Counted from the first letter of the stretch, positions 41,545-61,200 are shown. The stretch: DNA of 64,000 bases from an uncultured Gammaproteobacteria bacterium (GCA_964497245.1 CAZCCC010000001.1:10297-74296), one strand, 5' to 3'. The notes: a model not told the origin generated them from the letters alone. Numbers and translations are program-made.

Positions 41545-41580
41545 AAATTTAAACTTATTGATTAATTGTTAATTTCAGAT

Positions 41581-41730
41581 TTTATTGGCGACGTAGAGCG
41601 AGTGAAACAATCCGCCAAAGGCGGATTGTTTCCGAGCCGAGGAGCCAAAAAGGGTTAATACCACGTCATGACTTTACGTCGGGACTGCGGAAGAAGTGGG
41701 CGGAGCTTGCTTCGGGGTTAATACCCTTTA
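41581..41730 (+). repeat. Structured repeat element copy E1 (150 bp; candidate ncRNA or MITE-like element)
   Basis: 5' ttattggcgacgtagagcgagtg; perfect hairpin aaacaatccgcc-aaag-ggcggattgttt (41605-41632); internal aaaaagggttaatacc; 3' ggggttaatacccttta. Confidence 0.6.
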
Positions 41731-41802
41731 TTGTATCATAAATATTTTTTTTAGTAAATATTTTTATTTGATAAATAAGATAAAATAAGCTAAAATTATA
41801 TT

Positions 41803-42951
41803 ATGAAAATAGCAATTATTACCTCAACTTTTCCACCTTATGCCGGAGGAATTGGCAATGTTGCCGCTTTTAATGCCAAAGAGCTTTTAAAATTAGGGCA
41901 TAAAGTGGTTGTTTTTACTCCTTTTTATGAAAAAGTAAAAGAAGAGTTTACTGATTTTGAAATTAAGCGCCTTCCACCTTTATTTAACTATGGAAATGCC
42001 GCAATTGTTTTGTCTCTCAGGTGGGCACTTCAAGATTTTGATATTATTCATATCCATTATCCTTTTTTTGGCGGAGCTGAAGTGATCTGGCTTTACAGCA
42101 GGAGATTTAAAAAACAGGGGGCAAAAATTATCCTTCATTATCATATGGACGTCTGTGGACAAGGAGCTATGAAATTTTTTTTCAAACTTCATAAATCATT
42201 AATTCTTCCCAGGATAGTAAAAATTTCCGATAAGGTAATATTTACTTCAATGGATTACGGTCAGAATTCTTACCTAGCGGAGTTTTTTAAAAAAGATCCC
42301 AAAAAGTTTATTGAAGTTCCAAATGGCGTTGACAGTAATAACTTTTATTCGGCTCCAAAAGACAATATTCTGCTGGAAAAATATGAAATTACTGAAGATG
42401 AAAAAATTGTTTTATTTGTGGGCGGATTAGACAAAGCCCACTATTTTAAAGGCATTGAATATTTAATAGAGGCAATGAGCCGTTTAAGAAATTCCCAATA
42501 CCTTTGGCGGCTTTTAATAGTTGGAGAAGGAGACTTAAAAAAATATTATGTTTCATTAGTGGATCAATTTAGGCTTAAATCAAAAGTGATTTTTGCTGGT
42601 TATGTATCAAATGAAGATTTGCCGAAATATTATAATTTGGCGGATGTGGCAGTTTTACCCTCAGTTGATAAGTCTGAAGCTTTTGGCCTCACCTTGGTTG
42701 AAGCAATGAGCTGTGGCAAGCCGGTAGTAGCCTCAAATTTGCCCGGCGTCAGAAGCGTTGTCACTGAAAAAATGAACGGCTTGCTGGTTGAGCCGGGAAA
42801 TTCAGATGATTTGGCAGCAAAAATAAATTATTTTTTAAGTGATTCTCAGCAGTCTTATGATTTCGGCAAAGCTGGGAGAAATAAAGTAAAGCTCAAATAT
42901 GATTGGTCAATAATCGGTCGTAAGCTTGATGAACTTTACAAGGGGTTATGA
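41803..42951 (+). CDS. Glycosyltransferase family 4
   Basis: 382 aa; EAFGLTLVEAMSCGKPVVASNLPGVRSVV. Confidence 0.75.
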   Translation: MKIAIITSTFPPYAGGIGNVAAFNAKELLKLGHKVVVFTPFYEKVKEEFTDFEIKRLPPLFNYGNAAIVLSLRWALQDFDIIHIHYPFFGGAEVIWLYSRRFKKQGAKIILHYHMDVCGQGAMKFFFKLHKSLILPRIVKISDKVIFTSMDYGQNSYLAEFFKKDPKKFIEVPNGVDSNNFYSAPKDNILLEKYEITEDEKIVLFVGGLDKAHYFKGIEYLIEAMSRLRNSQYLWRLLIVGEGDLKKYYVSLVDQFRLKSKVIFAGYVSNEDLPKYYNLADVAVLPSVDKSEAFGLTLVEAMSCGKPVVASNLPGVRSVVTEKMNGLLVEPGNSDDLAAKINYFLSDSQQSYDFGKAGRNKVKLKYDWSIIGRKLDELYKGL

Positions 42952-43325
42952 GCAGAGTTGGTCGTATTATTTTTTGGTGGGTGGCGGTTTTTTTCTGGTT
43001 TATGGTAATTTATTATTTTTCCAGCCAGCCGAGCCTTAAATCAGACTTTCAACCTTTTTGGGATTTGATTTTAAGAAAAATTGCCCACATGGCCGAGTTT
43101 TTTGTTTTGGCTTATTTATTTTTTAATGCCTATCGGAGCCTTGGCTTGAAAGTAGGACGATCGCTTTTACTAGCTTTTATTTTTTCTTTGGTTTATGCAT
43201 TTTTTGACGAATGGCATCAGGATCAAGTTCTGGGTAGAACCAAAAGCATTATTGATGTGGTAATAGATGGATTGGGAATTTCCGTTTTTATTTTTTTGAA
43301 GTTAATTCAGAAATCAAAAAATTAG
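42948..43325 (+). CDS. VanZ-like family membrane protein
   Basis: 125 aa; 4 TM; FFDEWHQDQVLGR (VanZ DE.hQ motif). Confidence 0.6.
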   Translation: MSRVGRIIFWWVAVFFWFMVIYYFSSQPSLKSDFQPFWDLILRKIAHMAEFFVLAYLFFNAYRSLGLKVGRSLLLAFIFSLVYAFFDEWHQDQVLGRTKSIIDVVIDGLGISVFIFLKLIQKSKN

Positions 43326-43395
43326 GTCGTCAGTTCGGCTAAAAACTAATAGTGTAATTGGGTGTTTTAAAATAATTAAATTTTATTAATATATT

Positions 43396-44562
43396 ATGAA
43401 AATATGTCTGATTCATAGCTTATATAAACCATATACTCGAGGCGGGGCTGAGGTTGTTGTTGAAAATATTATTGATGGTTTTTTAAAGTTTGGACATGAA
43501 GTAATTTTGGTCACAATCGGCAGAAAAAATGAAGTTCAGCAAGAAGGAAGGTTAAAAATTTACCGGATTAATCCTTTTAATGTTTTTTCTTTTTTAAAGA
43601 TAGATAAAATGCCTGTTTGGCTCAGATTGTTTTGGCATCCGTTGGATGTTTTTAATTTTTCAAGTTATTTTAAAATAAAAAAAATTCTAAAGTTAGAAAG
43701 GCCTAAAGTGGTAATGACTCATAACCTGAAAGGAATTGGCTATTTGGTGCCGGCAGCAATAAGGCGGAGAAAAATTAGGCATTTCCATACTGTTCACGAT
43801 GTTCAGCTTTCACGGCCATCCGGCTTGATAATTTTTGGCCAAGAAAAACCGTTTTTAATCTTAGATAAGCTTTATGAAAAAATTGTCAAAAGGCTTTTTG
43901 GGAATCCCGACTTGCTGATTTCGCCTTCGCGTTGGCTTTTGGGGTATTATCAAGCGCGCGGGTTTTTTTATGAGTCAAAAAAAGTGGTGATGGCAAACCC
44001 GATAATTTTTAAGAAAACTGATAAAAGAGAGGAAGTATTAGTAGAAGAAAAAATCATTTTTTTATTTGTTGGGCAGCTGGAGTGGTTTAAGGGAATTCTT
44101 TTTTTAATTGATACTTTAAAAGAGGTTAAGTCGCAGAATTGGCAGCTTTTGATAATCGGTTCTGGTGGTGTTCAAAAAGCCGTTCAGAAAGAAGTTTTGG
44201 GAGATAGCCGTTTTAAATTTATTGGAAGAGTTGATCATGAAAAGTTGGCGGAATTTTATCGCCAAGCTGATTTTACCGTTGTCCCATCCCTTTGTTATGA
44301 AAACTCGCCGAAAGTGATTGATGAGAGTCTGGTGGCTAATGTTCCGGTAATTGCCGCAGATATCGGCGGGGTTTCTGAAATAGTCAAAGATTATTACAAT
44401 GGATTTACTTTTGCCCCTGGCAATAAGAAGAATTTAATAGAAGTCTTAGAATATTTTTTGAATAATCGGGAAAAAATAGCTGATCTTAAAAAAAATTGTT
44501 TTATTTCAGTGAGGAATTCTTCAATCAGAAATTATATTAATCAGCTTTTGAAATTAATTTAG
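43396..44562 (+). CDS. Glycosyltransferase family 4
   Basis: 388 aa; LCYENSPKVIDESLVANVPVIAADIGGVSEIV. Confidence 0.65.
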   Translation: MKICLIHSLYKPYTRGGAEVVVENIIDGFLKFGHEVILVTIGRKNEVQQEGRLKIYRINPFNVFSFLKIDKMPVWLRLFWHPLDVFNFSSYFKIKKILKLERPKVVMTHNLKGIGYLVPAAIRRRKIRHFHTVHDVQLSRPSGLIIFGQEKPFLILDKLYEKIVKRLFGNPDLLISPSRWLLGYYQARGFFYESKKVVMANPIIFKKTDKREEVLVEEKIIFLFVGQLEWFKGILFLIDTLKEVKSQNWQLLIIGSGGVQKAVQKEVLGDSRFKFIGRVDHEKLAEFYRQADFTVVPSLCYENSPKVIDESLVANVPVIAADIGGVSEIVKDYYNGFTFAPGNKKNLIEVLEYFLNNREKIADLKKNCFISVRNSSIRNYINQLLKLI

Positions 44563-44563
44563 G

Positions 44564-44610
44564 TTTATTGGCGACATCAAGCGAGTGTGCAGCACCGTTA
44601 ATACCCTTTA
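44564..44610 (+). repeat. Repeat element copy E2 (47-bp short form: 5' and 3' termini of the E family only)
   Basis: tttattggcgacatcaagcgagtg-tgcagcacc-gttaatacccttta, starting 2 nt after the stop codon of the GT4 gene. Confidence 0.6.
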
Positions 44611-44688
44611 TTATTTTGCCAATTTTTATAATCTAGAGTTTTAGACGGTTAAAAAAAACTGCTTTGATTTTTCAAAACAGCTTTAGTC

Positions 44689-44952
44689 TTAATGCAAGAA
44701 TCCAGAAATGGATGACGAAAGAGCAAGGTAGTCTATTTCATTTCCTTTTCCAAATTTTGTCATTAGAAAGTACCAAAGATCATTACCAATAATATGTGTC
44801 TGCCCATGTGCATTTACTAGGGAGGTAAATGCGCGACAAATTGTCTCTTCAGGCAGATCACAAAAAACGGCCTTTAGGCTGAAAAGAAGTTTTAAAAGAT
44901 TGCCGTGTCCATTGGCCAGTTCTTCAAAAGTGCAAAAGGTGCGAGTAGACAT
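44689..44952 (-). CDS. Hypothetical small protein (orphan; locally higher GC)
   Basis: 87 aa ORF, no recognisable motif; the only minus-strand ORF in this neighbourhood. Confidence 0.3.
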   Translation of the reverse strand: MSTRTFCTFEELANGHGNLLKLLFSLKAVFCDLPEETICRAFTSLVNAHGQTHIIGNDLWYFLMTKFGKGNEIDYLALSSSISGFLH

Positions 44953-45067
44953 TTAGATTTCCCTTTTTGTTTTGGTTGTCAGAAATTTGAATATTAATAT
45001 TACCCCATTTTTTATATATTGTCAATTAATCGTGGAGTTTTGCAAAGGGGAAATAGAAATGTCCTAC

Positions 45068-45104
45068 TTTTAAAATAAAATTAGCCGATTATTCAACCGG
45101 CTAG
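45068..45104 (-). terminator. Putative intrinsic terminator for the minus-strand membrane-protein gene
   Basis: Minus-strand reading: tagccg-gttgaataat-cggcta followed by attttattttaaaag. Confidence 0.35.
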
Positions 45105-45176
45105 AATCCAAAGCCCTAAAGGCAATTTGGGGTTAAATTATGAAATTTTTATTATAGGTTTAAGACTCTGAATATA

Positions 45177-47276
45177 TTAGTGTTTATATTTAAAGATAAG
45201 AATTTCTCCATCGTCTACCGTGTAAATTTTGTCTGCCGAGTTAGCCGCCTGATTTGCGATTTTTTCAAAATTTTGCCAATATTTGTTCAAGATAAAATAG
45301 CTTTCATTTACTCCAGCTTCATTCATCACTTTTTGCATTGTTTCTTTTTTCGCCCCTTCGTAAATCATTTCCAAATAGCCTTGATAAAAGGTTTTAGGCT
45401 CTCCCATTGGCATTGAGTAATAGAATTGGTTATTGTAATATTTTTTGAATCCCAATTCTTTAATTGCCGCTGCGCCAACCATCTGATTGGCAAGCACTAT
45501 GTGTTCTGGCGCAGCGATTTGCTCAATCAGGGTTATGGCTTTGATGTCTGATTCCGAAAGGCTGAAAAATTTAGCCGGCTCATATTGGTTTAAGCGAGGG
45601 TAAGATAGATATAAGGAAATCAATAACAGCCCGCTTAAAATAGAAACCAGGAAAGATTTTGCCAAATAATTTTCTTTTTGCCATAAATTTTTAATAAAAA
45701 CATATAATCCAATAAGAAAAAAAGGAAGAAGGATATAAAAAGTAAGCACTAAAAGTCTATTGGTAAATGAATTTTTATCATAATCTATCAAGGCGGGGAA
45801 AGTGATAAAATATTTTACAATTAAAAAATTGATGAAAATAACGGCTGATGCCATTAGATAACCAGAATTATTTTTTAGAAGTTTGTGCTTGGTGATATAG
45901 GCAAGTCCGATTAAAATTACTAAAAATGCCAGAATTATTTTATTTAAATTTATTAGGTACACGATGTTTAAAGGAAGGTCATATTTGTCAATCCAACTAA
46001 ATAAAACAAGATTTTCAAAGTTTATATCAGGTTTGTTTAAATTCAATGAGGATCCGTTTATTATAAAGGATAAAGGCAGAAAGATTATAAAAACCGTTCC
46101 CGTCAGAAAATAAAGCCAGATATGCCTTTTGTAGTTTTTATAGAACAATTTAAAAATATTCAAAAGCATTATTGTTATTAAAAGCGGAATTCCTGCCAAC
46201 GGATGAATGGCCAGTGCCGCTAAAGCCAAAAAATAGAGGGTAATGGCGGAAATATCATCTTTAAAATAAAGCAGAGAAAAAAGTATCGTTATAATAAAAA
46301 TTAGATTTGCCAGATTTTGAGGAGTAGTCATAATAAATCCGGAATAGGGAATCGCAATAATCATTAAGGCCATTATTAGCGAATACTTTTTTTGTAGCCA
46401 GTTGCTGAATACATAAAATACCGTTGTGGGAGCAAAAATTGAAAAAAAGACAGGTACCAGCATTTTATCAATCAAGGAGATGCTAATCCCACTGAATTTA
46501 TGCAGGAAAGTGACAATCGCATATTGCCCGAGATAATAAAGGGGCTTAGGGGTGATTGTTCCTGTTTGGCTGATTATTTTTTCCGTTGCTTGATGGATGA
46601 AAGGATCAAAGCCATAGCCTATTTTGTAGACTATTAAAGCAATACCAGCGCTTAGAAAAGTATGAACTATTGTTAATAATAAAGGCAATTTGGTTCTTGT
46701 TGATCTTAATAGATAAGTAACTAAACAGACGGTTAATCCAAAGTAAACAGGAAAAAATTTTGAATCCACAGTTTGCCAAGGTTCCTGTATTGACAGAGAT
46801 GTTTGTCCGTTTAAAAGCAGGAAAAAACAAAAAAAGGTACCGATGATATAAATAATAACAAGAAAAAAATTAGTTTTAGGCTCTTTTCTTTCATTAAATT
46901 TTGAAAAGTATTCTTTTACAATTTTTCTAAGTGATAGTTTTTTTTCGGGTTTTATCCAATAATACAAGAAAGCAAGAACAACAGGAATAAAGAAAAACAA
47001 ACCAAGTAGAATATTGTTGCTTAGACGATAAATATAGATTAGCCCAGCACCAACTATTGAAATGAAACAAAGTAAAAAAAGCGGGCCAAAAATAGTCTGC
47101 CAGCCTCGCTTATCAATAAATAAAGATCCGGTAATAAAGCCGAAGAATATTATATATGACAAGGTAAAAAAGGAACCTATGACAATATTATTCCAATACA
47201 AAAAATTAAATGCCAAAGAAAGGCAAATAATTAGAGCCGTCGTAAAGTATTTGAATTTAGTGATTTTTTCTTCCAT
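45177..47276 (-). CDS. Large polytopic membrane protein (about 14 TM + C-terminal soluble domain), possible GT-C-type glycosyltransferase
   Basis: 699 aa; hydrophobic through about residue 560, then a soluble tail; transcribed divergently from the next gene. Confidence 0.4.
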   Translation of the reverse strand: MEEKITKFKYFTTALIICLSLAFNFLYWNNIVIGSFFTLSYIIFFGFITGSLFIDKRGWQTIFGPLFLLCFISIVGAGLIYIYRLSNNILLGLFFFIPVVLAFLYYWIKPEKKLSLRKIVKEYFSKFNERKEPKTNFFLVIIYIIGTFFCFFLLLNGQTSLSIQEPWQTVDSKFFPVYFGLTVCLVTYLLRSTRTKLPLLLTIVHTFLSAGIALIVYKIGYGFDPFIHQATEKIISQTGTITPKPLYYLGQYAIVTFLHKFSGISISLIDKMLVPVFFSIFAPTTVFYVFSNWLQKKYSLIMALMIIAIPYSGFIMTTPQNLANLIFIITILFSLLYFKDDISAITLYFLALAALAIHPLAGIPLLITIMLLNIFKLFYKNYKRHIWLYFLTGTVFIIFLPLSFIINGSSLNLNKPDINFENLVLFSWIDKYDLPLNIVYLINLNKIILAFLVILIGLAYITKHKLLKNNSGYLMASAVIFINFLIVKYFITFPALIDYDKNSFTNRLLVLTFYILLPFFLIGLYVFIKNLWQKENYLAKSFLVSILSGLLLISLYLSYPRLNQYEPAKFFSLSESDIKAITLIEQIAAPEHIVLANQMVGAAAIKELGFKKYYNNQFYYSMPMGEPKTFYQGYLEMIYEGAKKETMQKVMNEAGVNESYFILNKYWQNFEKIANQAANSADKIYTVDDGEILIFKYKH

Positions 47277-47367
47277 ATTTTCTAGTATCTATATTTTAGC
47301 ACAAAAACGACTTTTTTTGCTATAATACTAAATATGATAAGGCTAAAAAATTAATAATTATTCTATA

Positions 47368-48945
47368 ATGTTTAAGAAGCGCAATTTTTTTCTGGCAGCT
47401 ATCGGAGTAGTGTCTTTAGTTGTTTATTTTTGGCTGGTTTCGCCTATTAATACCGGTCTTGAAATAAGCCATCGTTTTGATTGGCCTGATGAAGTTTCCA
47501 ATTATTTTTGGATTACTAATTACGCGGAAACCAGTCAGCTTTATGTTGCTGAACCTTTAAATTTAATCGCTGAAAATCAAATTCATCCAAGGAGTTTTAA
47601 TGTCCGGGAAGACGGCTCGCTTGTTCCGGGCAGTTTTTTTGGCTTAATACTGGTTTATGGATTGATTGCTAAATTATTTAGTTCCACTTTGGCTATTTAT
47701 TTTACTCCAATATTGGCGATAATAGCGTCTTTTTGCTTTTATGGAATAATTAGACACATATTTGACTTAAGAATTGCTCTATTGTCTTTAGTTTTAATGC
47801 TTTTTCATCCAGCCTGGCTTTATTATTCAGTCACTCCGATGCTTCCCAATGCTTGTTTTGTTTCACTTATTATCATTAGCGTTTGGCTTTTGATTTTCAG
47901 GAAAAATAGGATAAGTTCAATTCAAGTCCTGTTTTCGGCGCTTGCTTTAGGTTTTGCGGTATCAGTTCGGCCGGTTGAGATTTTTTGGATTTTTGCTTTG
48001 TATTTTTTAATTTTTATTTATTTATTTAAAAGGCTTGATTGGCAAAAAATTATTTTGTTTTTGGTAATCTTATTTTTAGCAGTAATTCCTTCAATTTATC
48101 AGCAGCAGATATTGTTTGGGAGTATTTTTACTTCAGGGTATGATCAGTTTCATATAGAAAAATCAATATTAGAGCAGTCGGCCGGTTTTATAAAATCTTT
48201 TATCGCTCCTTTTGGCATTCATCCTCGCTTAGCAACAGAAAATCTTTGGCTTTATTTTTTTAAGCAGCTTTGGTGGCTCTCATTTTTGGCCGTTTTGGGC
48301 TTGTTTGTCTCTTTATTTAATTTTAGGAAAAGAAACGAACTATTTTTTGGTTATGTTATTTTCAGCTTATTTTTGTTTTTTTGGCTTGGAAATTTTTATG
48401 GCAGCTGGCAATTTGAAGACAAACTCACGGTAAAACTCAATGTTTTAGGAATTTCTTATTTACGTTACTGGTTGCCTATATATTTAGTATCAGTTCCTTT
48501 TATTGCCTCTGGGCTTGCTTGGATTTCTAGCCTTTTAAAAACACGGGTTTTAAAAAAGTCAGCCTTGGCAATTTTCATTATTTTTCTTTTGTATAATTCT
48601 TTGCTACTATCCCTATTTAAAAATGAGGACAGCATTTTGCCGGTCCGCCGAAGAATTGCTGAATATAAAAAAACGGCAGCCAGAGTTATTTCATTAACCG
48701 AACAAGATTCAATAATCATTACTGTCAGAAAAGATAAAGTTTTTTTTCCCGAAAGAAAAGTAATTCATACTTTTGAGAAGCTTTCTGATAATCAAAAAAT
48801 ACAAAATTTTTTGCCTAATTTAATCAATGAAGCACCGGTTTATTATTATTCCCTTGAATTTGAAAAAAATCTTGAAATGGAAAACGGAATGTCTTTAGAA
48901 TTGGTGCAAAATATCGGTAATGAAGTTTTATATAAAATAAAATGA
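47368..48945 (+). CDS. Polytopic membrane protein, possible GT-C/PMT-like glycosyltransferase
   Basis: 525 aa; many TM segments; C-terminal soluble domain. Confidence 0.4.
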   Translation: MFKKRNFFLAAIGVVSLVVYFWLVSPINTGLEISHRFDWPDEVSNYFWITNYAETSQLYVAEPLNLIAENQIHPRSFNVREDGSLVPGSFFGLILVYGLIAKLFSSTLAIYFTPILAIIASFCFYGIIRHIFDLRIALLSLVLMLFHPAWLYYSVTPMLPNACFVSLIIISVWLLIFRKNRISSIQVLFSALALGFAVSVRPVEIFWIFALYFLIFIYLFKRLDWQKIILFLVILFLAVIPSIYQQQILFGSIFTSGYDQFHIEKSILEQSAGFIKSFIAPFGIHPRLATENLWLYFFKQLWWLSFLAVLGLFVSLFNFRKRNELFFGYVIFSLFLFFWLGNFYGSWQFEDKLTVKLNVLGISYLRYWLPIYLVSVPFIASGLAWISSLLKTRVLKKSALAIFIIFLLYNSLLLSLFKNEDSILPVRRRIAEYKKTAARVISLTEQDSIIITVRKDKVFFPERKVIHTFEKLSDNQKIQNFLPNLINEAPVYYYSLEFEKNLEMENGMSLELVQNIGNEVLYKIK

Positions 48946-49460
48946 AAAATAACTATTTAAAATTAATTAAATTACTACTGATAGTTTTTTCAATTTTTTT
49001 ATTTTTGTTTTTAATTAATAAAAATTTCCCCAGGTCAGGACAGATAACTGTTGAAATGAAATTGGGCAAAGATTTGCCGGCAATTACCAAGCTTGGACCT
49101 GAGCCGAGAGTAATTTTGCAAAATGGATTCCAATCGGTTCTGGAAGGCCCGGTTTATTTTGATTTAAGGTCAATGCCATGGTTTAAAGAAGCTATTGTCA
49201 TTATAGTTTTTTTGGAAGAAGAAATGGAACTCGAGGGAATTGCCGGTCAGTCAGGGCCCGGCTGGCAGTATGATATAAAAGAACCTTTTCTGGTTAATGA
49301 TTTGGAGCAAGGCCTAAAAATTGCATTATTCAACTTTGACTTAGACGAATTATATCAGCAAAAAAATATCAGGCGATTTTTGATTTCCCTTAAGCCTTCG
49401 GGGCAACGGGAGCGTCCGGAACTTAAAATTTATTCACTTAAAATAATTCTAAACCAATAA
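48942..49460 (+). CDS. Hypothetical protein with N-terminal signal anchor
   Basis: 172 aa; single N-terminal TM. Confidence 0.4.
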   Translation: MKNNYLKLIKLLLIVFSIFLFLFLINKNFPRSGQITVEMKLGKDLPAITKLGPEPRVILQNGFQSVLEGPVYFDLRSMPWFKEAIVIIVFLEEEMELEGIAGQSGPGWQYDIKEPFLVNDLEQGLKIALFNFDLDELYQQKNIRRFLISLKPSGQRERPELKIYSLKIILNQ

Positions 49461-49462
49461 TA

Positions 49463-49657: not shown

Positions 49658-49658
49658 T

Positions 49659-52275: not shown

Positions 52276-52287
52276 TTTAATTTTTTT

Positions 52288-53127: not shown

Positions 53128-53160
53128 AATTATAGAATATTTTAAATAATAACAATTGTT

Positions 53161-54234
53161 ATGCAAAAAATTTTAGAAAATATTGTTTGGCTAAATAGTA
53201 AAAGTTTGGCTGGTAATACCTTACAGGATTATCTTAATTCATTTTTTATTTTTTTACTGTTGGTTTTTATTCTAAAAATTTTTCAGCATGTTATTTTAGT
53301 CAAGTTAAAAGAAATAGCGGCTGGAACTAAAACTGATTTTGATGAAACCTTGATCAGAATTTTTTCAGAGATAAAACCGCCTTTTTATTTTTTTATAGCT
53401 TTTTATTTTGGTTTGAGCTTTTTGAATTTGTCTGAAATATTGTCCAAAACGATTAGGATCATTTTTTTAGCGTTAATTGTTTTTGAGATTATTAGGGCCA
53501 TGGATAAGTTGATTGATTTTTTCGCTTTTAAGTATTTAAAAAAAATTGATGAGGAAAATACTCAGCAGGAGAAAGAATATATAACCAGGCCGATAAAGAT
53601 AATTTTAAAAATTATCTTATGGCTTTTGGGTATTACTTTAGTTTTGGCTAATTTAGGAATTAATGTGACTTCTATAGTTGCGAGTTTGGGAATTGGCGGT
53701 GTGGCCATAGCCTTGGCGGTACAAAATATTTTGGGAGATATTTTTTCTTCTTTCTCTATTTATATAGACAAGCCTTTTAAAGTTGGTGACTTTATTCAAA
53801 TTGGTCAAGATGCCGGAATTGTTGAAAAAATAGGGCTTAAAACCACCAGAATAAGAACATTGCATGGAGAGGAGCTTGTGATATCTAATCATGAATTAAC
53901 CTCTGCTCGAGTACAAAATTTTAAGAAAATGGAAAACCGCAGAGTTTCCTTTACTATTGATTTGGTTTATGGTACAGACTTGAAACAATTAGATAAAGTT
54001 CCGGAAATAATCAAACAAATAATTGATACGGAAGAAATGGCCGAATTTAGCAGATGCCATTTTAAAGAATACGGCAAATCAGCGTTGATTTTTGAAGTGG
54101 TATATTTTGTTAATTCTCCTGATTATTTAGTTTATATGGACACAAGGCAGAGAATAAATTTGGCAATATATCGCGATTTCCAAATGGAAAAAATTAATTT
54201 CGCTTATCCAAAGACAATATTTGTCAAAAAATAA
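53161..54234 (+). CDS. Small-conductance mechanosensitive channel (MscS family)
   Basis: 357 aa; IVASLGIGGVAIALAVQNILGDIFSSFSIYIDKPFKVGDFIQIG. Confidence 0.8.
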   Translation: MQKILENIVWLNSKSLAGNTLQDYLNSFFIFLLLVFILKIFQHVILVKLKEIAAGTKTDFDETLIRIFSEIKPPFYFFIAFYFGLSFLNLSEILSKTIRIIFLALIVFEIIRAMDKLIDFFAFKYLKKIDEENTQQEKEYITRPIKIILKIILWLLGITLVLANLGINVTSIVASLGIGGVAIALAVQNILGDIFSSFSIYIDKPFKVGDFIQIGQDAGIVEKIGLKTTRIRTLHGEELVISNHELTSARVQNFKKMENRRVSFTIDLVYGTDLKQLDKVPEIIKQIIDTEEMAEFSRCHFKEYGKSALIFEVVYFVNSPDYLVYMDTRQRINLAIYRDFQMEKINFAYPKTIFVKK

Positions 54235-54260
54235 TTTTTTGCGTTTATTAAAAAGATATA

Positions 54261-55958
54261 ATGAAAAAATATAATCCGAAAAAAATAAGAATAGTATTTT
54301 TTATTTTTATTATTATTTTAGCGGTTTTTTTACGTTTTTGGGGGATACCCGGAAGCGATTTACAGCATGATACGGCAATTAATTCAGTCAGGGCTTATGG
54401 CTGGTTTGATTATCTTACAGGACAAGGGCAAACTTCCCCTGTTGTTTGGTTTTCAGAAATTCCTTGGTGGGCTAATTTATCTTTTCATGATCATCCACCA
54501 TTAACTTTTTTCATTCAAAATATTTTTTTCAAAGTAGTCGGAGCCTCTACGTTTTCAGCGCTGCTACCTTTTATTTTGGCGGGCATTGGTGTAGTTTTTC
54601 TGATCTATTTTTTTCTGAAGAATATAGAATTAAAAAAGGAGGCATTGTTAGCTTCTTTTTTATTTGCAATTTCTGCTCATTCAGTTTGGGTTTCCCGATC
54701 TGGTTATTTAGAAGGAATAGAGATATTTTTTATATTTTTAGGCTTTATTTGCTTTATTTATTTTTTATATTTTGATAAAAAAAGATATTTATTTTTTTGG
54801 GCAGCCAGTTTTTCACTGGCTATTTTAAGTAAGTATACGGCTGTTTTTATGTTTCCGGCGGCGATTTTGTATCTTTTGATTTGGCGGCGTGATGTTTTTA
54901 AAATGAAGGAATTTTGGTTGTCTTTAGTTTTTATTTTTTTGATTTTATCTCCTTTGATTTTTTATAACTTAATGGTTTTTCAAACTCGTGGTCATTTTGA
55001 TGCCGCTTTATCTTCAATGCTTGCTATGCATCCTGCAGATTTTGAGGTTATTTCTCAGCGCGGAACAAATACAGATTTTTTATCAAACATATCTTCAACC
55101 TTTAAATCAATCGGAGGAGTAAGCTCAACGCCGTTTTTTATTTTAAATATTTTATCTTTATTTTATTTACTTGCTAAAGTTATTCGAAAAAAAGGAAATC
55201 TTTTAATAAATTTTTTATTCATTAATATTTTAATGATAGTATTAATGTTTTGTTTTGGCAGCGGAGCGGTTCGTTTTTTGTCAATAATTTTTCCATTTTT
55301 AAGTATTAGCTTAAGTTTGATGATTTGTGAATTATGGCAGCAAATTAAAATTTACGGTCGTTTTTATCTCAAAATATTATCAGTATTTTTAATTTTTTTA
55401 TTCTGCTTTGAAGTATTTTATTCAGTTAATACTAATATATTAAAAAAGCCTATTGGGAAAAAAGGTTTTTTTTATTCTTCTGGTCGTTTTTACCAGTCTG
55501 GTTTTAATGAGCTTGAACAATATTTAAAAGATAATGTTTTTAAAAATATTACTGAAAAGAGAAAAATTAAAAATTTTTCTCAAATAAGCAGTTATTATAT
55601 AAAAGGAAAAGAAGTCGTTTTATTTGACGAAAGGATTGATTGGTTTTCTCGGATGTGGCATATTGACAGATATATCATTTATTATAATGCCCCTGTTTTT
55701 TATTTTACTGATCTTGATATTATTTTTTCAAGTAGTAATATTGAGAAAAATTTTATTGATTATCTAAGACAAGATCTTGAAGTAGCTGGATTTTGGTTTG
55801 TTGTTGGAGCTAATGAAGGAGTAAACAGGAAGAATCAATATTATAATGAATTGGTTGAATCTTTAGAAGATCAACTTATTTTAGCTGGCATTAATCCTGA
55901 ATCTGAAATAAAAAATTATTTAGGAAATGTGGTTTTTAGGGTTTACCGTTTTCAATAG
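54261..55958 (+). CDS. GT39/ArnT/PMT-like membrane glycosyltransferase (GT-C)
   Basis: 565 aa; N-terminal polytopic region with FHDHPPL (PMT/ArnT DEPPL-like loop). Confidence 0.55.
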   Translation: MKKYNPKKIRIVFFIFIIILAVFLRFWGIPGSDLQHDTAINSVRAYGWFDYLTGQGQTSPVVWFSEIPWWANLSFHDHPPLTFFIQNIFFKVVGASTFSALLPFILAGIGVVFLIYFFLKNIELKKEALLASFLFAISAHSVWVSRSGYLEGIEIFFIFLGFICFIYFLYFDKKRYLFFWAASFSLAILSKYTAVFMFPAAILYLLIWRRDVFKMKEFWLSLVFIFLILSPLIFYNLMVFQTRGHFDAALSSMLAMHPADFEVISQRGTNTDFLSNISSTFKSIGGVSSTPFFILNILSLFYLLAKVIRKKGNLLINFLFINILMIVLMFCFGSGAVRFLSIIFPFLSISLSLMICELWQQIKIYGRFYLKILSVFLIFLFCFEVFYSVNTNILKKPIGKKGFFYSSGRFYQSGFNELEQYLKDNVFKNITEKRKIKNFSQISSYYIKGKEVVLFDERIDWFSRMWHIDRYIIYYNAPVFYFTDLDIIFSSSNIEKNFIDYLRQDLEVAGFWFVVGANEGVNRKNQYYNELVESLEDQLILAGINPESEIKNYLGNVVFRVYRFQ

Positions 55959-56026
55959 TTTTGACAAAACATTTTAAAAAAAGTATCCTGAAGTATGTCA
56001 GAATTATGCTTTAGGAACTAAATATT

Positions 56027-56767
56027 ATGTTTATTTTTATGAAAGGAATAATTTTAGCAGGCGGAACCGGTTCGCGTCTTAGTCCGCTTACAAAAATAAC
56101 AAATAAGCATCTGCTACCGGTATATGATAAACCGATGATTTATTACCCGATTCAAACATTAGTTTCGGCGGGTATTAAAGATATTATGATAGTTTCAGGA
56201 AAAGGTCATGCCGGCCAATTTTTGGAATTACTTAAATCAGGCAAAGAATTTGGCGCTAATTTTTCATATGCTATTCAGGAAGAAGCCGGTGGGATAGCTC
56301 AAGCATTAAGTTTGTGTGAAGATTTTTCCGACCATGAAAAAATAGCTGTCATGCTTGGGGATAATATTTTAGAAGATAATATAGTAAATGCAGCCATTGA
56401 TTTTCATAATCAAAAAATGGGAGCAAAGATATTTTTAAAAGAAGTTAAGAATCCCTGCTCTTTTGGTGTAGCTGAAGTGGAAGGAAAAAAAATTATCAGC
56501 ATTGAAGAAAAGCCGAAAAGTCCGAAAAGCAATTTGGCAGTAATTGGGGTTTATATGTATGACAGTCAAGTTTGGAATGTGATTAAAACTCTGAAGCCTT
56601 CGGGCAGGGGAGAATTAGAAATAACCGATGTTAATAATTTTTATGCTGGGAAAGGGGAAATGACTTTTGAAATTTTAGCTGGCTGGTGGGGAGACGGAGG
56701 AGAGTCTTTTGACAGTTTATTGGAAGCGGCTAATTTAGTGGCAAAAAAACTAAGCAAGCAAAAGTAG
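56027..56767 (+). CDS. Sugar-1-phosphate nucleotidyltransferase (RmlA-like, short form)
   Basis: 246 aa; MKGIILAGGTGSRLSPLTKITNKHLLPVYDKPMIYYPI. Confidence 0.75.
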   Translation: MFIFMKGIILAGGTGSRLSPLTKITNKHLLPVYDKPMIYYPIQTLVSAGIKDIMIVSGKGHAGQFLELLKSGKEFGANFSYAIQEEAGGIAQALSLCEDFSDHEKIAVMLGDNILEDNIVNAAIDFHNQKMGAKIFLKEVKNPCSFGVAEVEGKKIISIEEKPKSPKSNLAVIGVYMYDSQVWNVIKTLKPSGRGELEITDVNNFYAGKGEMTFEILAGWWGDGGESFDSLLEAANLVAKKLSKQK

Positions 56768-56842
56768 TAATTTATCAGCGCTGTAAAAAAGCTCTCAATA
56801 TGTCATAAATTCATTTAAGACTATATATATTATTTTGACAAA

Positions 56843-56880
56843 AATTACCTCCTTGTTATGGGAGGTAATTAATTTTTTAT
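56843..56880. terminator. Bidirectional intrinsic terminator between convergent genes
   Basis: Perfect 10-bp stem aattacctcc (56843-56852) / ggaggtaatt (56861-56870), 8-nt loop, followed by aattttttat. Confidence 0.6.
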
Positions 56881-56894
56881 AAAATGGCGATAAT

Positions 56895-58265
56895 CTATTG
56901 GATTTCTAGCCTGTATATTCCTTGCTGGGTTCCGGCCTGCCCCTTGAAGTAAATGTTTTTACCTTGGTTATCGATGATAATTCCTAAAACGCTTTGCAGT
57001 TCAGCAATCTGAATGTCGTTTTTATACTCTTGTCCATCAGCTTCAATTGCTTTTATTTTGTTTTCTGTTTGGTATATTAGGTAATTATTTTCCGGATGCC
57101 ATGCAGCTTGAATGATTGTCCCGCTGTATCGGGTTACTAAATCTTTATGTGCGGTTTCAAAATTAAAAATTGATATTTCAAAATCAGTGTTGTATAAGAT
57201 TTTTTTTGCATCATCAGACCAAACAAATTTTTTTGCTCTGTCTTGGAGAATTATGCTCCTTTCTATATTTTCTTCACTAAAAGAATTGTCTTTTAAAATA
57301 AAGAAGTCATTGTTGTTTTGATCAATTAAAATAAGGTAATCACGGCTTTCCGGATAAAGTCCGAATTCTGTTGATGGAAGTTTTATTTTCTGAATTTTTT
57401 CCGGATTTTTTTCATTTATTGCAACCCTGCTGACAAATGATTCCTCATTTATTATTTCCATAAGAAGCAGAATATTATTATTTACCTGAAAATCTTGAAT
57501 CCGTCCGGATATTATTGGTTTTACTGAATTGGAAATCATATCTATCTGGTATAAAACAGCTTCTCTAAGTCCATAAAGATAATTTTCATCTCTGTTGTCC
57601 CACTTCAATTCGTTGAAATTTAGCCTGGTTATGTCAAATAATTCTCTGGTTTTTAGAGTTTCAACGTCAACGATTATAAATTTATTAAATTCACTTATTT
57701 TTTGATTTATTATTGCCTTATTTTGTTTTGGAGACCATTGAATGAAATCAATTTGACTGTAGGAATTAGGGCTGAATTTTTCTATAAGTAAATCTAATTG
57801 ATTTTTTAGGTTAAAAATTCTAAGTTCTTCACCGCTTTCGGAAATGATGGAATAAATCATTTTTGTTTTGTCCGGAGAAACTGTAAAAATATTTATTTCT
57901 CCGCTGATTATATTCATTGGCAGTGATTTTTTAAATAAGATAGTATCTTTGCTGAAAGTTGTTAAATTGCTTTTTATTTCAAGATCTTTCTCCCATGTAT
58001 GATAGCCCTCTTTTTCCACTTTTATCCTGTAAGTGTCCGGTAACATATATCTGAATCTGGCAGGGGTTTTATCTCTGTATTTGCCGTCAATATATATTAA
58101 AGATTGACGAGGCCTTGAATCAACATAAAGAATACCGGTTTTTTCAATTTTATTTTTTTTAAAATTATAGCGGTAGCCGGATGCATACATAATCAAGATC
58201 GGAGCAATAATAAAAAAAGCGGCAATGAATATTGAGTATGTAATTCGGCGAAAATACATTTTCAT
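56895..58265 (-). CDS. Membrane-anchored PEGA-domain protein with C-terminal beta-propeller-like region
   Basis: 456 aa; N-terminal TM; PEGA-like segment GILYVDSRPRQSLIYIDGKYRDKTPARFRYMLPDTYRIKVEKEGYHTWEKDLEI. Confidence 0.5.
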   Translation of the reverse strand: MKMYFRRITYSIFIAAFFIIAPILIMYASGYRYNFKKNKIEKTGILYVDSRPRQSLIYIDGKYRDKTPARFRYMLPDTYRIKVEKEGYHTWEKDLEIKSNLTTFSKDTILFKKSLPMNIISGEINIFTVSPDKTKMIYSIISESGEELRIFNLKNQLDLLIEKFSPNSYSQIDFIQWSPKQNKAIINQKISEFNKFIIVDVETLKTRELFDITRLNFNELKWDNRDENYLYGLREAVLYQIDMISNSVKPIISGRIQDFQVNNNILLLMEIINEESFVSRVAINEKNPEKIQKIKLPSTEFGLYPESRDYLILIDQNNNDFFILKDNSFSEENIERSIILQDRAKKFVWSDDAKKILYNTDFEISIFNFETAHKDLVTRYSGTIIQAAWHPENNYLIYQTENKIKAIEADGQEYKNDIQIAELQSVLGIIIDNQGKNIYFKGQAGTQQGIYRLEIQ

Positions 58266-58353
58266 AATGCTTGTGGAAATTTTTTTAAAATGTTAAACTT
58301 ACATAAAAGAACTAGTTTAATTTTACCAAAAATTTAATTTTTTTGCTAATTTT

Positions 58354-59658
58354 ATGAGTAATTATTTAATAGAAGGAAATAAGGATTTAAGGGGTGAAAT
58401 AACCACCAATACTTCAAAAAATGCAGCTGTTGCTTTGTTAAATGCTGCGCTTTTAAATAGAGGAAAGACGATTCTTAAAAATGTTCCAAAAATTGAGGAA
58501 GTCAGCCGGATTATGGAAGTATTGCAGAGTATTGGTGTATATGTCAAATGGATAAACAAAAAAGATATTGAGATAACTCGACCAAAAAAAATTAATTTAT
58601 CAGGAATTAATTATGATTCAGCCATAAAGACCCGTAGCATCCTGTTTTTGCTTGGAATTATGATTCATTACCAGAAATCTTTTTTAGTTCCCCAGCCGGG
58701 TGGTTGCCGTCTTGGAAAAAGAACAGTGAAACCACATCTTTTTGCTTTGGAGAATTTTGGTGTAAGGATTAATACTTTGAAGAAACATTATCAGGTAAAA
58801 TACAGCAAACTTTACCCTGCTAAAAATTTAGTTTTGTATGAATCAGGCGATACGGTAACTGAAAATGCGATTTTAGCCGCCGCCTTGATACCAGGCAAAA
58901 CTATAATCAAATTCGCTTCAGCAAATTATCAAGTTCAAGACCTTTGTTACTTTCTTGAAAAGCTGGGAATAAGAATTAAGGGAATAGGCACGACAACAAT
59001 TGAAATAGAAGGCAAAAAGAATATTAAAAAAGACATTGTCTATAATTTAACTGAAGATCCGATAGAGTCTATGCTTTTTTTATCAATTGCCGCCACTACC
59101 AACTCAAGCCTTACAATTAAACGCTGCCCAATTGATTTTTTAGAGATTGAGCTTCTAAAATTAGAGAAAATGGGCTTTAAATACAAAATAATTAGACGTT
59201 ACAAAGCAAAGAATGGCAAGGGAAATTTGGTTGACATTAAAACTTTTAGAAGCCGACTTTGCGCCGTTGAAGAAAAAATTGAATCTCGTCCCTTTCCCGG
59301 TTTAAATATAGATAACTTGCCGTTTTTTGCTCCTGTTGCCACTCAGGCGAAAGGAACCACTTTTATTTTTGATTGGGTTTTTGAAGAACGGGCGATTTAT
59401 TTTACCGAATTAAACAGACTCGGGGCAAAAGTAACGCTGGCTGATCCTCATCGGGTTTTTATAACCGGTCCTACACCTTTAAGAGGAAATGAAATAATTT
59501 GTCCGCCGGCCCTCAGACCTTCAACTATAATTTTAGTTGCCATGCTTGCCGCCCGTGGTAATTCAATATTAAGAAATGTTTATTCAATAGAGCGCGGCTA
59601 TGAAGATTTATGTGGTCGGTTGGAAAAAATAGGAGCAAAAATTAAAAAGATTGATTAG
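58354..59658 (+). CDS. murA: UDP-N-acetylglucosamine 1-carboxyvinyltransferase
   Basis: 434 aa; NTSKNAAVALLNAALLNRGKTILKNVP and catalytic loop PQPGGCRLGKRTV. Confidence 0.85.
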   Translation: MSNYLIEGNKDLRGEITTNTSKNAAVALLNAALLNRGKTILKNVPKIEEVSRIMEVLQSIGVYVKWINKKDIEITRPKKINLSGINYDSAIKTRSILFLLGIMIHYQKSFLVPQPGGCRLGKRTVKPHLFALENFGVRINTLKKHYQVKYSKLYPAKNLVLYESGDTVTENAILAAALIPGKTIIKFASANYQVQDLCYFLEKLGIRIKGIGTTTIEIEGKKNIKKDIVYNLTEDPIESMLFLSIAATTNSSLTIKRCPIDFLEIELLKLEKMGFKYKIIRRYKAKNGKGNLVDIKTFRSRLCAVEEKIESRPFPGLNIDNLPFFAPVATQAKGTTFIFDWVFEERAIYFTELNRLGAKVTLADPHRVFITGPTPLRGNEIICPPALRPSTIILVAMLAARGNSILRNVYSIERGYEDLCGRLEKIGAKIKKID

Positions 59659-59726
59659 ATTTGTGAATTAAATTTTTGTTGTATCTCAATTAAAGTATTA
59701 ATTTAATAATAAAATATAAATAAAAA

Positions 59727-61037
59727 ATGGAAATGAAAAAAAATCAAAATATTTTCAAGATAAAACCGTCTTCAAAAATGACGATTGTTTTTTTTAGTTT
59801 TATCTTTGCTACTTTAATTTTTATTGCTGGTTTTTTTACAGCTGAACTCTCCTTAATTTATGGATCGGCGGGCCGATCGGCCGGAAAAGGGGAGGTTGTA
59901 AATATCTCAAAAGAAACCCCTGATTTTTTAAGTAGAGATGTTGATTTTAATCAGTTTTGGCAAGTTTGGAAGCATGTTAAAGAAAATTACGTTGATTCAG
60001 ATATACCGGATACTAAATTATTTTATGGTGCTTTAGCCGGAATAGTTGCTTCTTTAGGCGATCCGTATTCAGTATTTTTAGATCCGGAAGTCGCCAAAAA
60101 GTTTCAGGAGGAAATTTCGGGAAGTTTTGAAGGAATCGGGGCGGAAATTGGCATTAAGGATGGGAGGCTTACAATTGTTTCTCCTTTGCCTCAGACACCG
60201 GCAGAAAAAGCCGGTCTGATGCCCGGGGACAGGATTTTGGCAATTGATGATTATGATACGACCGGAATTGCCATTGATTTGGCAGTAAGTAAAATTAGAG
60301 GACCGAAAGGAACCGAAGTGATTTTAACTATACTCAGTGAAGGCCAGTCTGAACCAAAGGAGATTTCAATAACAAGGGATAAAATTCAAATTGATAGTGT
60401 TATTTTTGAAAAAAAAGATTATAACGGAAAGTCAGAAGATGAAGAAGGGTTTGTAGTAAAAGAAGGCAACATTGCTTATATCCAACTTCGCTATTTCAAC
60501 GAAAATACACTGGTTGAATGGAATAAAATTGTTCAAAATATTATTAAGGCAGGCCCTAAAGGCATAATTTTGGATTTAAGGAATAATCCCGGCGGATTTT
60601 TGGCCACTGCCATTGAAATTGCCGGCGAATGGGCTAATGGCAGGCCGGTTGTGTTGGAAAAGCTTCGCAATGGGGAGTCAGTTTCGCATAAAGCCACCCG
60701 ACAAGCAAGATTTGAAGAAATTCCAACCGTTGTTTTAGTTAATGGCGGCAGTGCGTCAGGTGCTGAAATAGTTGCCGGCGCTTTGCAGGATTACGGTCTT
60801 GCGACTTTAGTCGGCCAAAAAACTTTCGGCAAAGGCTCAGTTCAAGATTTGAAGAAGCTTAAAGACGGTTCTTCGGTTAAATTGACAATTGCCGAATGGT
60901 TCACTCCGCTTGGCAGGAATATAAATAAAGAAGGAATTGAGCCGGATGTTGAAGTTGAAAGAACTAGAGAAGATTTTGATAAAGATATTGATCCGCAACT
61001 TGACAAGGCGATTGAGATACTAAAAAATCAACAGTAA
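59727..61037 (+). CDS. ctp: Carboxyl-terminal processing protease (S41) with PDZ domain
   Basis: 436 aa; N-terminal TM, PDZ (GLMPGDRILAIDD), ILDLRNNPGG, GGSASGAEIVAGALQD. Confidence 0.85.
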   Translation: MEMKKNQNIFKIKPSSKMTIVFFSFIFATLIFIAGFFTAELSLIYGSAGRSAGKGEVVNISKETPDFLSRDVDFNQFWQVWKHVKENYVDSDIPDTKLFYGALAGIVASLGDPYSVFLDPEVAKKFQEEISGSFEGIGAEIGIKDGRLTIVSPLPQTPAEKAGLMPGDRILAIDDYDTTGIAIDLAVSKIRGPKGTEVILTILSEGQSEPKEISITRDKIQIDSVIFEKKDYNGKSEDEEGFVVKEGNIAYIQLRYFNENTLVEWNKIVQNIIKAGPKGIILDLRNNPGGFLATAIEIAGEWANGRPVVLEKLRNGESVSHKATRQARFEEIPTVVLVNGGSASGAEIVAGALQDYGLATLVGQKTFGKGSVQDLKKLKDGSSVKLTIAEWFTPLGRNINKEGIEPDVEVERTREDFDKDIDPQLDKAIEILKNQQ

Positions 61038-61050
61038 AATGGCAAGCAAA

Positions 61051-61200
61051 TAAAGGGTATTGACCGCAAAGCGATTTTTTCGCAGCAAACTTCGGGTATT
61101 AACCTTTTTTGGTTCCCTGTCTGCCACGCCAAAGTCGTTTATCTCCGCCATAGGCGGACAAGCGACAACTGCGGGGACACTAGCTTGACGTTACCAATAA
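61051..61200 (-). repeat. Repeat element copy E3 (150 bp, reverse orientation)
   Basis: The reverse complement reads ttattggtaacgtcaagctagtg...gtccgcc-tatg-ggcggag...aaaaaaggttaataccc...ggtcaatacccttta, i.e. the same termini and architecture as E1 with compensatory stem changes. Confidence 0.6.

Follow-up and report, generated by a model that had tools for sequence, protein, structure and literature searches.

The 64,000-nt window analysed here (GCA_964497245.1, CAZCCC010000001.1:10297-74296, from an uncultured Gammaproteobacteria bacterium; all window positions are those of the whole stretch) carries three copies, E1 (+), E2 (+) and E3 (-), of a repeat that we read as a small non-autonomous mobile element with an IS200/IS605-like single-strand mechanism (probability about 0.6). 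That the family is mobile and follows a target rule we hold with high confidence. It is restricted to genomes and metagenomes of Patescibacteria (the Candidate Phyla Radiation, CPR) and, within the literature searched, was previously uncatalogued. The first-pass annotation had located E1, E2 and E3 by their common termini, and alignment confirmed all three sites, at 41581-41732, 44564-44612 and 61201-61049, with a 24-nt 5' end and a 16-17-nt 3' end common to the three copies. The 5' motif TTTATTGGYRACRTMRAGCKAGTG (at most 3 mismatches) occurs three times in the window versus 0.00 expected from 100 shuffles, and the 3' motif GTYAATACCCTTTATT three times versus 0.27 expected, with no shuffle reaching three; at a tolerance of 2-3 mismatches each motif was still found exactly three times. 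Alignment likewise bore out the internal AAAAARGGTTAATACC block and the hairpin tip TCCGCC/GGCGGA that E1 and E3 had been said to have in common.

When one genome per species was scanned for the degenerate 5' motif, 24 loci emerged, ten of which belong to Patescibacteria (Paceibacterota, Parcubacteria, Kaiserbacteria, Saccharibacteria and others) and share one architecture; the non-CPR loci are chance matches. We then searched metagenomes with a gapped pattern joining both core strands and obtained at least 120 loci, about 90 of which hold distinct true elements. A covariance model (R1) was built from a seed of 38 ungapped copies, 111 copies were found by cmsearch, and the full alignment contains 100 distinct copies. 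The search for further copies that the first-pass annotation had proposed, made here with a covariance model from the family seed, returned many, all of them in CPR. The family has a common plan. On the left stand (Y)UUUA, a 4-5-nt strand of the stem P1, the core strand CGACGUAGAGCGAGUG, the hairpin P2, the second core strand CCGAGCCGAGGAG and the P1 partner strand; on the right follow an A-rich linker, a strand of the stem P3, 0-3 hairpins, the P3 partner strand and UUUAY. Element length ranges across the family from about 100 to 230 nt. The number of 3'-domain hairpins varies (none in loci L015 and L078, three in L006 and L014), and the extra ones often combine AAUACC joiners with GC hairpins that have CUUG loops. 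Several copies can be dispersed over one contig, as with four in the 14.6 kb of L060, and in some contigs the density reaches several copies per 10-60 kb.

Insertion could be read directly from one copy (L066, 3660-3812), the only one of about 90 to lie inside a long gene. It interrupts a type III restriction Res gene with 153 nt of inserted DNA, that is, 51 in-frame codons and no stop, and NCBI annotates the resulting open reading frame (ORF) as an intact DEAD/DEAH helicase (P0121). The product has 1023 aa versus 938-976 aa in 119 listed homologues, and their alignment shows a single 51-aa insert in P0121 between ...LEP and FTLYPL.... With slashes marking the boundaries of the insert, the filled site reads ...CCGTTTAC/TGGCGACG...GAGATTTAC/ACTCTATCC, and the empty sites of two homologues read TCATTTAC/ACTCTATCCG (L152) and CCGTTTAC/TCTATATCCG (L154). 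In codons, the homologues have TCA TTT AC/A CTC TAT CCG (L152) and CCG TTT AC/T CTA TAT CCG (L154), and the L066 gene has GAGCCGTTTAC/TGGCGACG...GAGCGAGATTTAC/ACTCTATCC. The inserted DNA starts directly 3' of a pre-existing TTTAC and itself ends in TTTAC. By analogy with L066, the pentamer flanking E1 was probably target DNA present before insertion.

The two boundary motifs are linked throughout the family. All copies are preceded by UUUAY, and conservation sets in sharply at this flanking motif (model positions 3-7 are U74 U87 U94 A99 Y). When copies were sorted by flank, the 200 nt downstream of the core held TTTAC in 15 of the 16 with a ..TAC flank (shuffles predict 1.8) and TTTAT in 48 of the 61 with a ..TAT flank (21.5 expected), with no enrichment of the opposite motif (TTTAT versus TTTAC) in either class. 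By inspection, the terminal motif usually follows directly after the P3 3' strand; automated detection of P3 and of the 3' end was too noisy and was replaced by this motif-enrichment test and inspection.

A putative internal guide accompanies the boundary motifs. The linker is GAAA in TTTAC elements and AAAA, ACAC or AUAU in TTTAT elements. It lies in an A-rich stretch (strand M) that is complementary to the flanking TTTAY and also to the element's own terminal TTTAY, and thus the linker between the two hairpins has two possible partners, the target flank and the 3' end of its own element. Position 7, which is both the last base of the flanking pentamer and the first P1 pair, covaries with its partner within the element, position 69 of strand M (UA 73, CG 18, AU 2); pair 5/71 is U-A in 34 of 38 copies, and A6 is 99% conserved and mostly unpaired. 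The same pentamer at both junctions is what a circular double-stranded element would show if a site-specific recombinase (tyrosine, serine or IS110-type) had integrated it via a 5-bp TTTAY core, and a tyrosine integrase does occur in a variable island of L150, described below. We regard this explanation as very improbable: covariation between guide and target fits recognition by base pairs over recognition by protein, double-strand recombinases do not need strand-asymmetric intrastrand pairing, no recombinase is enriched near the copies, and the attC R''/R' consensus is absent by inspection.

In its surroundings, the element behaves as mobile DNA. Most similar to E1 are L081 and L089 (which agree at 99.4% with one another and at 92-94% with E1) and L096 (89%), and their homology with E1 spans window positions 41577/41581-41732/41735 only, between unrelated flanks. 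Orientation relative to the two neighbouring genes is near random (21 same/same, 14 same/opposite, 14 opposite/opposite and 13 opposite/same), with a weak co-orientation with genes (~58%), and Pfam assigns the 150 proteins nearest to the copies to 158 families, each with at most three members and none enriched. A role as cis-regulatory leader was rejected on the random orientation and the lack of gene association; single copies upstream of nusG, rplJ or a tRNA look incidental. In 98 copies the alignment holds no information upstream of model position 2, and thus no promoter lies at a fixed distance upstream. The lack of a conserved promoter, the random orientation relative to genes and the copy that sits in frame inside a gene together indicate a mobile element of DNA; its fold may be active in the single-stranded state.

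Head-to-tail arrays were found in L115, L147, L097, L067 and L017, where the second unit begins directly after the terminal motif of the first with zero spacer, except in L067, whose first unit looks truncated. The arrays in L115 and L147 resemble rolling-circle products, strand M is complementary in a splint-like manner to a hypothetical 3'-5' junction (ACCCUUUAU/UGGC), and conserved internal loops adjoin that junction. An RNA intermediate would account for these three features, either as a ribozyme-like unit that cuts between UUUA and Y and circularises on the strand M splint or as a retro-element copied by reverse transcriptase. We consider such a route quite unlikely: no Rfam ribozyme or intron matched even at E <= 10, no reverse transcriptase is enriched among the neighbours, and insertion is precise, with neither a poly-A tail nor a variable duplication. 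Moreover, the sole genic copy (a single case) is in frame and stop-free, as expected without splicing.

The fold was assessed on both alignments. Standard pairs fill 96.9% of cells in the seed alignment, with two-sided changes in 15 of 21 pairs, and 97.2% in the full alignment, with two-sided changes in 18 of 21; the full alignment was fitted to the model, which favours structure somewhat, and the seed alignment was not. This level of pairing and covariation was matched by none of 500 shuffles, and sliding the 3' partners by 1-3 columns lowered pairing to 31-55%. P2 is paired in 97.6% of cells across the family, P1 covaries (for example UA 73/CG 18 and AU 41/GC 40), and rare variants preserve the proposed internal pairs C14-G62, G20-C59 and G24-C54. 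Because G-U/U-G pairs (67) exceed A-C/C-A combinations (18), one strand can be named as the folded strand. P3 was examined by inspection, which revealed the variants AGGGU/ACCCU, AACCGG/CCGGUU and UAUAGUCC/GGACUAUA, and by a crude test that gave 30 matches with own versus a mean of 15 with foreign M strands. As to the core strands, 12 of the 13 nt of CCGAGCCGAGGAG were fixed by the search pattern, so that their conservation is partly imposed; the first 8 nt of CGACGUAGAGCGAGUG were left unfixed, with a filter that only limited mismatches to at most 2 in 8, and these loosely constrained positions are as conserved as the rest of the purine-rich strands.

The first-pass annotation had inferred selection on RNA structure from compensatory changes in the outer stems of E1 and E3. 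Selection on an intrastrand fold holds at the level of the family, through covariation among 100 members. The pair E1 and E3 taken alone is weak evidence for covariation; the E3 stem is merely GUCG/CGAC (4 bp), past an asymmetric internal loop. Folded as single strands, E1 reaches -61.4 kcal/mol (z = -5.3), E3 folds weakly (z = -2.4) and E2 folds no better than shuffled sequence.

Could the repeats instead be genes for a structured small RNA, such as a CPR-specific ribonucleoprotein (RNP) scaffold spread by duplication, with TTTAY as processing sites or terminator tail? The architecture is elaborate (P1, three purine-rich loops, P2, a P3-closed junction, AAUACC joiners and CUUG hairpins), the loops hardly vary across phyla (91-100% invariant), one strand is marked by the G-U excess, and a mini-hairpin with a U-rich tail behind it scores like a terminator. 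Judging from the sequence, three tandem G.A motifs could arise from the remaining positions of the loops, one of them resembling a kink-turn (k-turn), which consists of a canonical stem, a 3-nt bulge and tandem sheared G.A/A.G pairs and binds proteins of the L7Ae family. By inspection, C-[GUA]-GA opposite GA-G is compatible with a k-turn, at positions whose invariance makes covariation uninformative. Against an RNA gene speak the lack of a conserved upstream promoter, the 14 of 62 copies antisense to both neighbours (the random expectation), the precise 153-nt insertion in a conserved gene beside a pre-existing TTTAC, the absence of copies at orthologous sites, the truncated and decayed copies E2 and E3, and the zero-spacer head-to-tail arrays. 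We therefore judge a pure RNA gene family improbable; an RNA role and mobility could coexist.

A combination of this kind belongs to another explanation that we put forward tentatively, at well under even odds, namely a new architectural class of guide-directed single-strand mobile element in which one A-rich guide between two hairpins sets both cleavage sites and the target. An as yet unrecognised partner present throughout CPR, either a new HUH clade or another enzyme, would read its unusually conserved purine-rich core, or the core would double as a functional RNA. In the latter form, omega-RNA-like or a k-turn RNP scaffold, the element could be a transposon end and an RNA gene in one.

How might an IS200/IS605-like element of this kind move? 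The folded strand presents an irregular left-end hairpin (P1, purine-rich loops and P2), the A-rich linker and the right-end hairpin P3. The element inserts in a single orientation directly 3' of TTTAY and ends in TTTAY. The linker would serve as a DNA guide that chooses cleavage and target sites, as in IS200/IS605, and most probably an HUH/Y1-type enzyme supplied in trans would carry out single-strand 'peel-and-paste' transposition. Cleavage after TTTAY at both ends would release a circle with a ...ACCC-TTTAT/TGGC... junction that could integrate behind another TTTAY, and integration behind the element's own terminal TTTAY would generate the head-to-tail arrays. The data show mobility, both motifs (target and terminal), a guide that is complementary and covaries, and a fold specific to one strand; the single-stranded DNA substrate and the type of enzyme are what we infer.

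The proposal follows known precedents. In IS608, CL (TTAC) is matched with the guide GL (AAAG) and CR (TCAA) with GR (GAAT), insertion takes place 3' of TTAC, and the guides adjoin subterminal hairpins and recognise CL and CR by base pairing (PMC5934647). Geobacillus ISGst has TTTAT or TTCAT as adjacent motif and TTCAC as terminal motif, both covarying with DNA guides, and its gene-less derivatives are known as PATEs (PMC10055086). Like IS200/IS605 PATEs, the CPR element (i) inserts in a fixed orientation on the 3' side of a constant 4-5-nt motif, for which TTAC and TTTAT have precedents; (ii) has a related motif at its 3' boundary; (iii) contains an internal guide complementary to, and covarying with, both motifs; (iv) has subterminal imperfect hairpins at both ends, with one strand functional, and no gene; and (v) would be excised and inserted without a scar. 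Unlike in IS608, the left hairpin abuts the target motif, which gives the order flanking motif, left hairpin, guide, right hairpin and terminal motif. Compared with IS200/IS605 in general, the left hairpin is long and irregular, with purine-rich loops that are near-invariant across CPR phyla, a three-hairpin junction is possible at the right end, and the search revealed no cognate TnpA or TnpB/IscB, either in cis or linked. In about 90% of copies the base of P2 reads G-AAA/UUU-C; it is some 20 nt away from the cleavage site, roughly the distance at which the left guide of IS608 is placed; as a speculation drawn from this analogy, the P2 base might act as a second guide.

Several observations weigh against an IS200/IS605-like mechanism. 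Only one pair of empty and filled sites was recovered (L066 and its homologues), and a search for empty sites among the fetched loci gave only filled orthologous pairs; copies at orthologous sites can be kept between strains whose flanks are 85-91% identical. A 5-bp target duplication of TTTAY cannot be told apart from insertion 3' of TTTAY by an element with TTTAY as terminal motif. Unlike IS608, with a guide 5' of each hairpin, the element has a single guide between its hairpins, at the GR position, and its multi-helix 3' domain and purine-rich loops, near-invariant across phyla, are closer to a functional RNA than to a typical transposon end. Finally, no transposase is linked to the element in the neighbourhoods examined and the window holds no Y1_Tnp homologue. 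Clustering of neighbour proteins did yield one recurrent family, the IS200-like Y1_Tnp, present within 3 kb of the element at four independent loci of about 85 (L075 2178-2885, L107 4776-5468, L143 8888-9571 and L071 3775-4575; ~222-230 aa). All four genes are flanked by perfect palindromes of their own, which are lineage-specific and unrelated to the element. The family is abundant in CPR (7122 matches at E <= 1e-20; further loci are L155-L166), and 116 kb from five independent transposase-side genomes contained no element within 6 kb of the Y1_Tnp gene. In four of these five genomes the order FtsK, a ~1100-aa protein, Y1_Tnp, a ~207-aa protein and a large surface protein is conserved, with rplJ/rplL next in loci that extend far enough; such synteny-bound Y1_Tnp genes look domesticated in the manner of RAYT/REP.

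A RAYT/REP partnership is accordingly weakened by the private palindromes, the conserved synteny and the lack of an element nearby in this unbiased sample. What remains is a hint of a link with Y1 in L143, where the Y1 unit is bounded on both sides by GGATTTAC and a solo REP hairpin is followed by 21 nt, TTTAC and then the element. Two further leads were discarded. No autonomous copy with an internal gene was found, and the genes downstream of two L108 copies are unrelated. The 13-mer CCTTTATTGGCGA (41513-41501, -), which looks like the hypothetical circle junction and lies 68 nt from E1, was taken as a coincidence; it encodes AFIGES near the N-terminus of a rubrerythrin-like ORF, the likelier explanation.

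Comparison with other small repeats sets the family apart. With REP/REPIN-RAYT systems it shares multiple intergenic copies, a one-strand fold, a GTAG tetranucleotide 5' of the hairpin and the presence of Y1 HUH genes in the same genomes. REPs, however, are simple palindromes of 20-40 nt, often in inverted pairs, unlike this asymmetric 100-230-nt element with TTTAY boundaries; together with the unrelated palindromes around the RAYT-like genes, this places the element outside REP/RAYT. A classical miniature inverted-repeat transposable element (MITE) of the DDE type does not fit, as the termini TTATTGG... and ...ACCCTTTAT are not inverted repeats; the flanking repeat is also fixed and class-specific, unlike the variable target-site duplication of a MITE. 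By inspection the element is not an integron attC site either, with ends TTTAY/YNNN... and ...TTTAY versus RYYYAAC/GTTRRRY, and no integron integrase was found among the neighbour proteins. TIGR-Tas arrays, which consist of 8-12-nt repeats and 9-nt spacers (PMC12045711), have another architecture. Two more repeat types invite comparison by their organisation. The pneumococcal BOX element (boxA-boxB(n)-boxC) is modular, intergenic and multi-copy, with conserved ends, variable internal modules and 'ends-only' short forms comparable to E2, but it is confined to one genus, has mutually complementary ends and is unrelated in sequence, whereas the present family ranges over a superphylum and inserts at a defined motif. 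The palindromic elements of Rickettsia are small repeats found in frame within protein genes, as is the L066 copy; unlike them, the CPR element has no palindromic symmetry, and there is no sequence relation.

Among the three copies in the window, E1 (41586-41731, +; 146 nt) is intact and the sole canonical family member. With filters off, the core model R1 matched E1 alone (41579-41654, 80 bits, E = 9e-24), and E2 and E3 gave no match in the window at E <= 10. E1 is placed between divergent rubrerythrin and GT4 genes. Its flanking TTTAT (41581-41585, +) is the counterpart of the transposon-adjacent motif (TAM/CL) of IS200/IS605, and the last base of this pentamer is the first of the P1 5' strand UUGGC (41585-41589, +), whose partner is GCCAA (41644-41648). 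Next come the invariant 5' core strand CGACGUAGAGCGAGUG (41589-41604, +; 91-100% conserved in 100 distinct copies), the P2 hairpin G-AAACAAUCCGCC-AAA-GGCGGAUUGUUU-C (41604-41632, +), with two-sided changes in 13 of 15 pairs across the family, and the invariant 3' core strand CCGAGCCGAGGAG (41632-41644, +; 94-98% conserved). Strand M, GCCAAAAAGGGU (41644-41655, +), comprises the P1 3' strand, the A-rich linker proposed as DNA guide and the P3 5' strand. The variable 3' domain (41656-41722, +) forms the loop of P3 and contains, in order, UAAUACC as the rest of the GGUUAAUACC block, two hairpins (the first partly disrupted, the second with a CUUG loop) and the start of a second GGUUAAUACC. It is closed by the P3 3' strand ACCCUU (41723-41731, +), which overlaps TTTAT (41727-41731, +), the terminal motif that corresponds to the transposon-encoded motif (TEM/CR).

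In other members of the family (L006, L014, L055, L063, L139, L008 and others), the 3' domain has a middle hairpin of the form GGAC-GAGC-GAA-GCGAG-UUCC with tandem G.A/A.G mismatches. In L139 and L008 the mismatches are replaced by Watson-Crick pairs (GGACGCGC-GUA-GCGCGUUCC), so that, by inspection, this hairpin is a second site where sheared G.A pairs appear as an alternative to a regular helix.

E2 and E3 depart from the intact form in different ways. E2 follows a target TTTAT (44564-44568, +) and is a 43-nt insert (44569-44611, +) in which an 8-nt filler joins the first 19 nt of the element to its last 16 nt, the latter including the terminal TTTAT; P2, strand M and the 3' core strand are missing, and E2 is a remnant of an internal deletion. 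E3 lies on the opposite strand beside its target TTTAT (61201-61197, -) and runs for 147 nt (61196-61050, -), with an extended P2 and a core that has diverged. It retains both termini, strand M with the linker and the P2 tip; about 12 core positions are changed, and the closing pair of P1 has gone from C-G to U-A. We read E3 as a decaying copy whose core has diverged. Both E2 and E3 have UCAAGC where the family has UAGAGC. A subfamily with an E3-like core (ACRTCAAGCKAGTG) was considered and dropped, with no further copies in 151 loci or in viral contigs.

The element matched nothing in the catalogues searched. Rfam 15 (4227 models, including ribozymes, introns and IS605/HEARO RNAs) gave no match in the window at the gathering threshold, only chance matches of at most 20 bits on the E1 region at E <= 10, and only tRNA and LSU rRNA on twelve family loci. 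The Rfam check suggested for the repeats in the first-pass annotation therefore assigned them to no known family. Searches of the window for tRNA and tmRNA found none. BLAST against phage (50,697 records) and plasmid (72,556 records) collections returned no match to the element, and carriage by phages or plasmids was set aside: the single pattern match in a viral contig is due to chance, as its upstream core is missing. No searchable paper has the core strings in a relevant context, and the literature searched contains no account of the family.

E1 and E2 are indeed in direct orientation around ORFs 41803-44562, which encode GT4, VanZ and GT4 proteins. It had been proposed from this arrangement that the two copies border a cassette inserted or exchanged by recombination. 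Homologues of the GT4 protein beside E1 (GT4a) come from Buchananbacteria-like CPR genomes, and three relatives were compared (GT4a protein identity of 80% in L149, 70% in L150 and 69% in L151, the latter on a 922-kb contig). All three keep the block without elements, the outcome named beforehand as refuting a cassette, and the cassette model is thereby refuted. They conserve the order GT2, opposite-strand oxidative-stress genes, GT4 and VanZ, with a second GT4 in L149 and L151; L149 also has the 699-aa gene and the genes that follow it. The covariance model, with filters off, detected no element in 57 kb of the L149-L151 loci. The gap upstream of GT4a is merely 54 nt in L150 and L151, and in L149 the second GT4 is followed by 86 nt and then by the 699-aa gene. 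From the element-free synteny of the relatives it follows that the block was inherited vertically and that E1, E2 and a segment of ~600 nt with ORF 44689-44952 came later; in L149, the precise empty site for E1 or E2 is unalignable, the intergenic DNA being too diverged. That E1 and E2 serve as recombination borders of the block, or as its cis-regulatory RNAs, is suggested by their position as direct repeats on either side of it and now seems scarcely credible: besides the syntenic block in relatives that lack the element, E2 is a foldless 43-nt remnant, the family has no gene association and a promoter-like site for GT4a lies downstream of E1.

The neighbourhood of the block is variable in other respects. 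The segment after E2 (44612-45176) contains ORF 44689-44952 (-; 87 aa, no Pfam match) and a promoter-like TTGACA-17-TAATAT at 45025-44997, with hairpins on both sides; the ~600-nt segment is absent from the 80%-identity relative L149. This ORF had been singled out for higher GC content and proved not to be distinctive (~0.37 versus 0.30-0.40 in its surroundings). L149 has a different insert of ~115 nt (6697-6815) directly upstream of the GT4a start codon, bounded by the inverted repeats CCGTTAGAGATAG...CTATCTCTAACG; the window has no insert at this point. Variable islands of small unannotated ORFs follow VanZ in L150 (11590-18133) and L151 (11584-15009). In L151 the island lies between VanZ and the second GT4; L150 has no visible second GT4 and carries the tyrosine integrase (17264-18091) at the end of the locus. 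In the relatives, the spot after VanZ is a hot spot of gene turnover that does not depend on the E elements.

The genomes of CPR bacteria are tiny, and their mobile DNA and non-coding elements are poorly known. The core covariance model would annotate hundreds of 'orphan' intergenic structures in these genomes, and the insertion polymorphisms it flags would be useful for strain tracking. Copies in promoter regions (E1 lies between divergent genes), and the one in a restriction gene, may affect expression. Target, boundary and guide can be read from the sequence, so that tests of a compact guide-directed insertion system become possible with short oligonucleotides; in a parallel case, IS608 retargeting and the work on TnpB/IscB grew from IS200/IS605.

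The window holds a second repeat family, TTTCYCYCTCCCYTKGTGGGAGAGGG(K)(T)AGGG, at 1-29, 161-210, 704-753 and 832-881, and also at 620-672. These repeats form hairpins, are unrelated to E1-E3 and lie on both sides of ORF 254-601, which we take from its sequence to encode a DUF559-type endonuclease-domain protein. Two tandem genes (16092-17492 and 17495-18889) have an 89-nt stretch in common at 80% identity and may be paralogues, and ORF 34449-36689 contains an internal repeat spaced 153 nt (35868-36103). The similarities within 16092-18889 and 35868-36103 look like ordinary gene or protein repeats.

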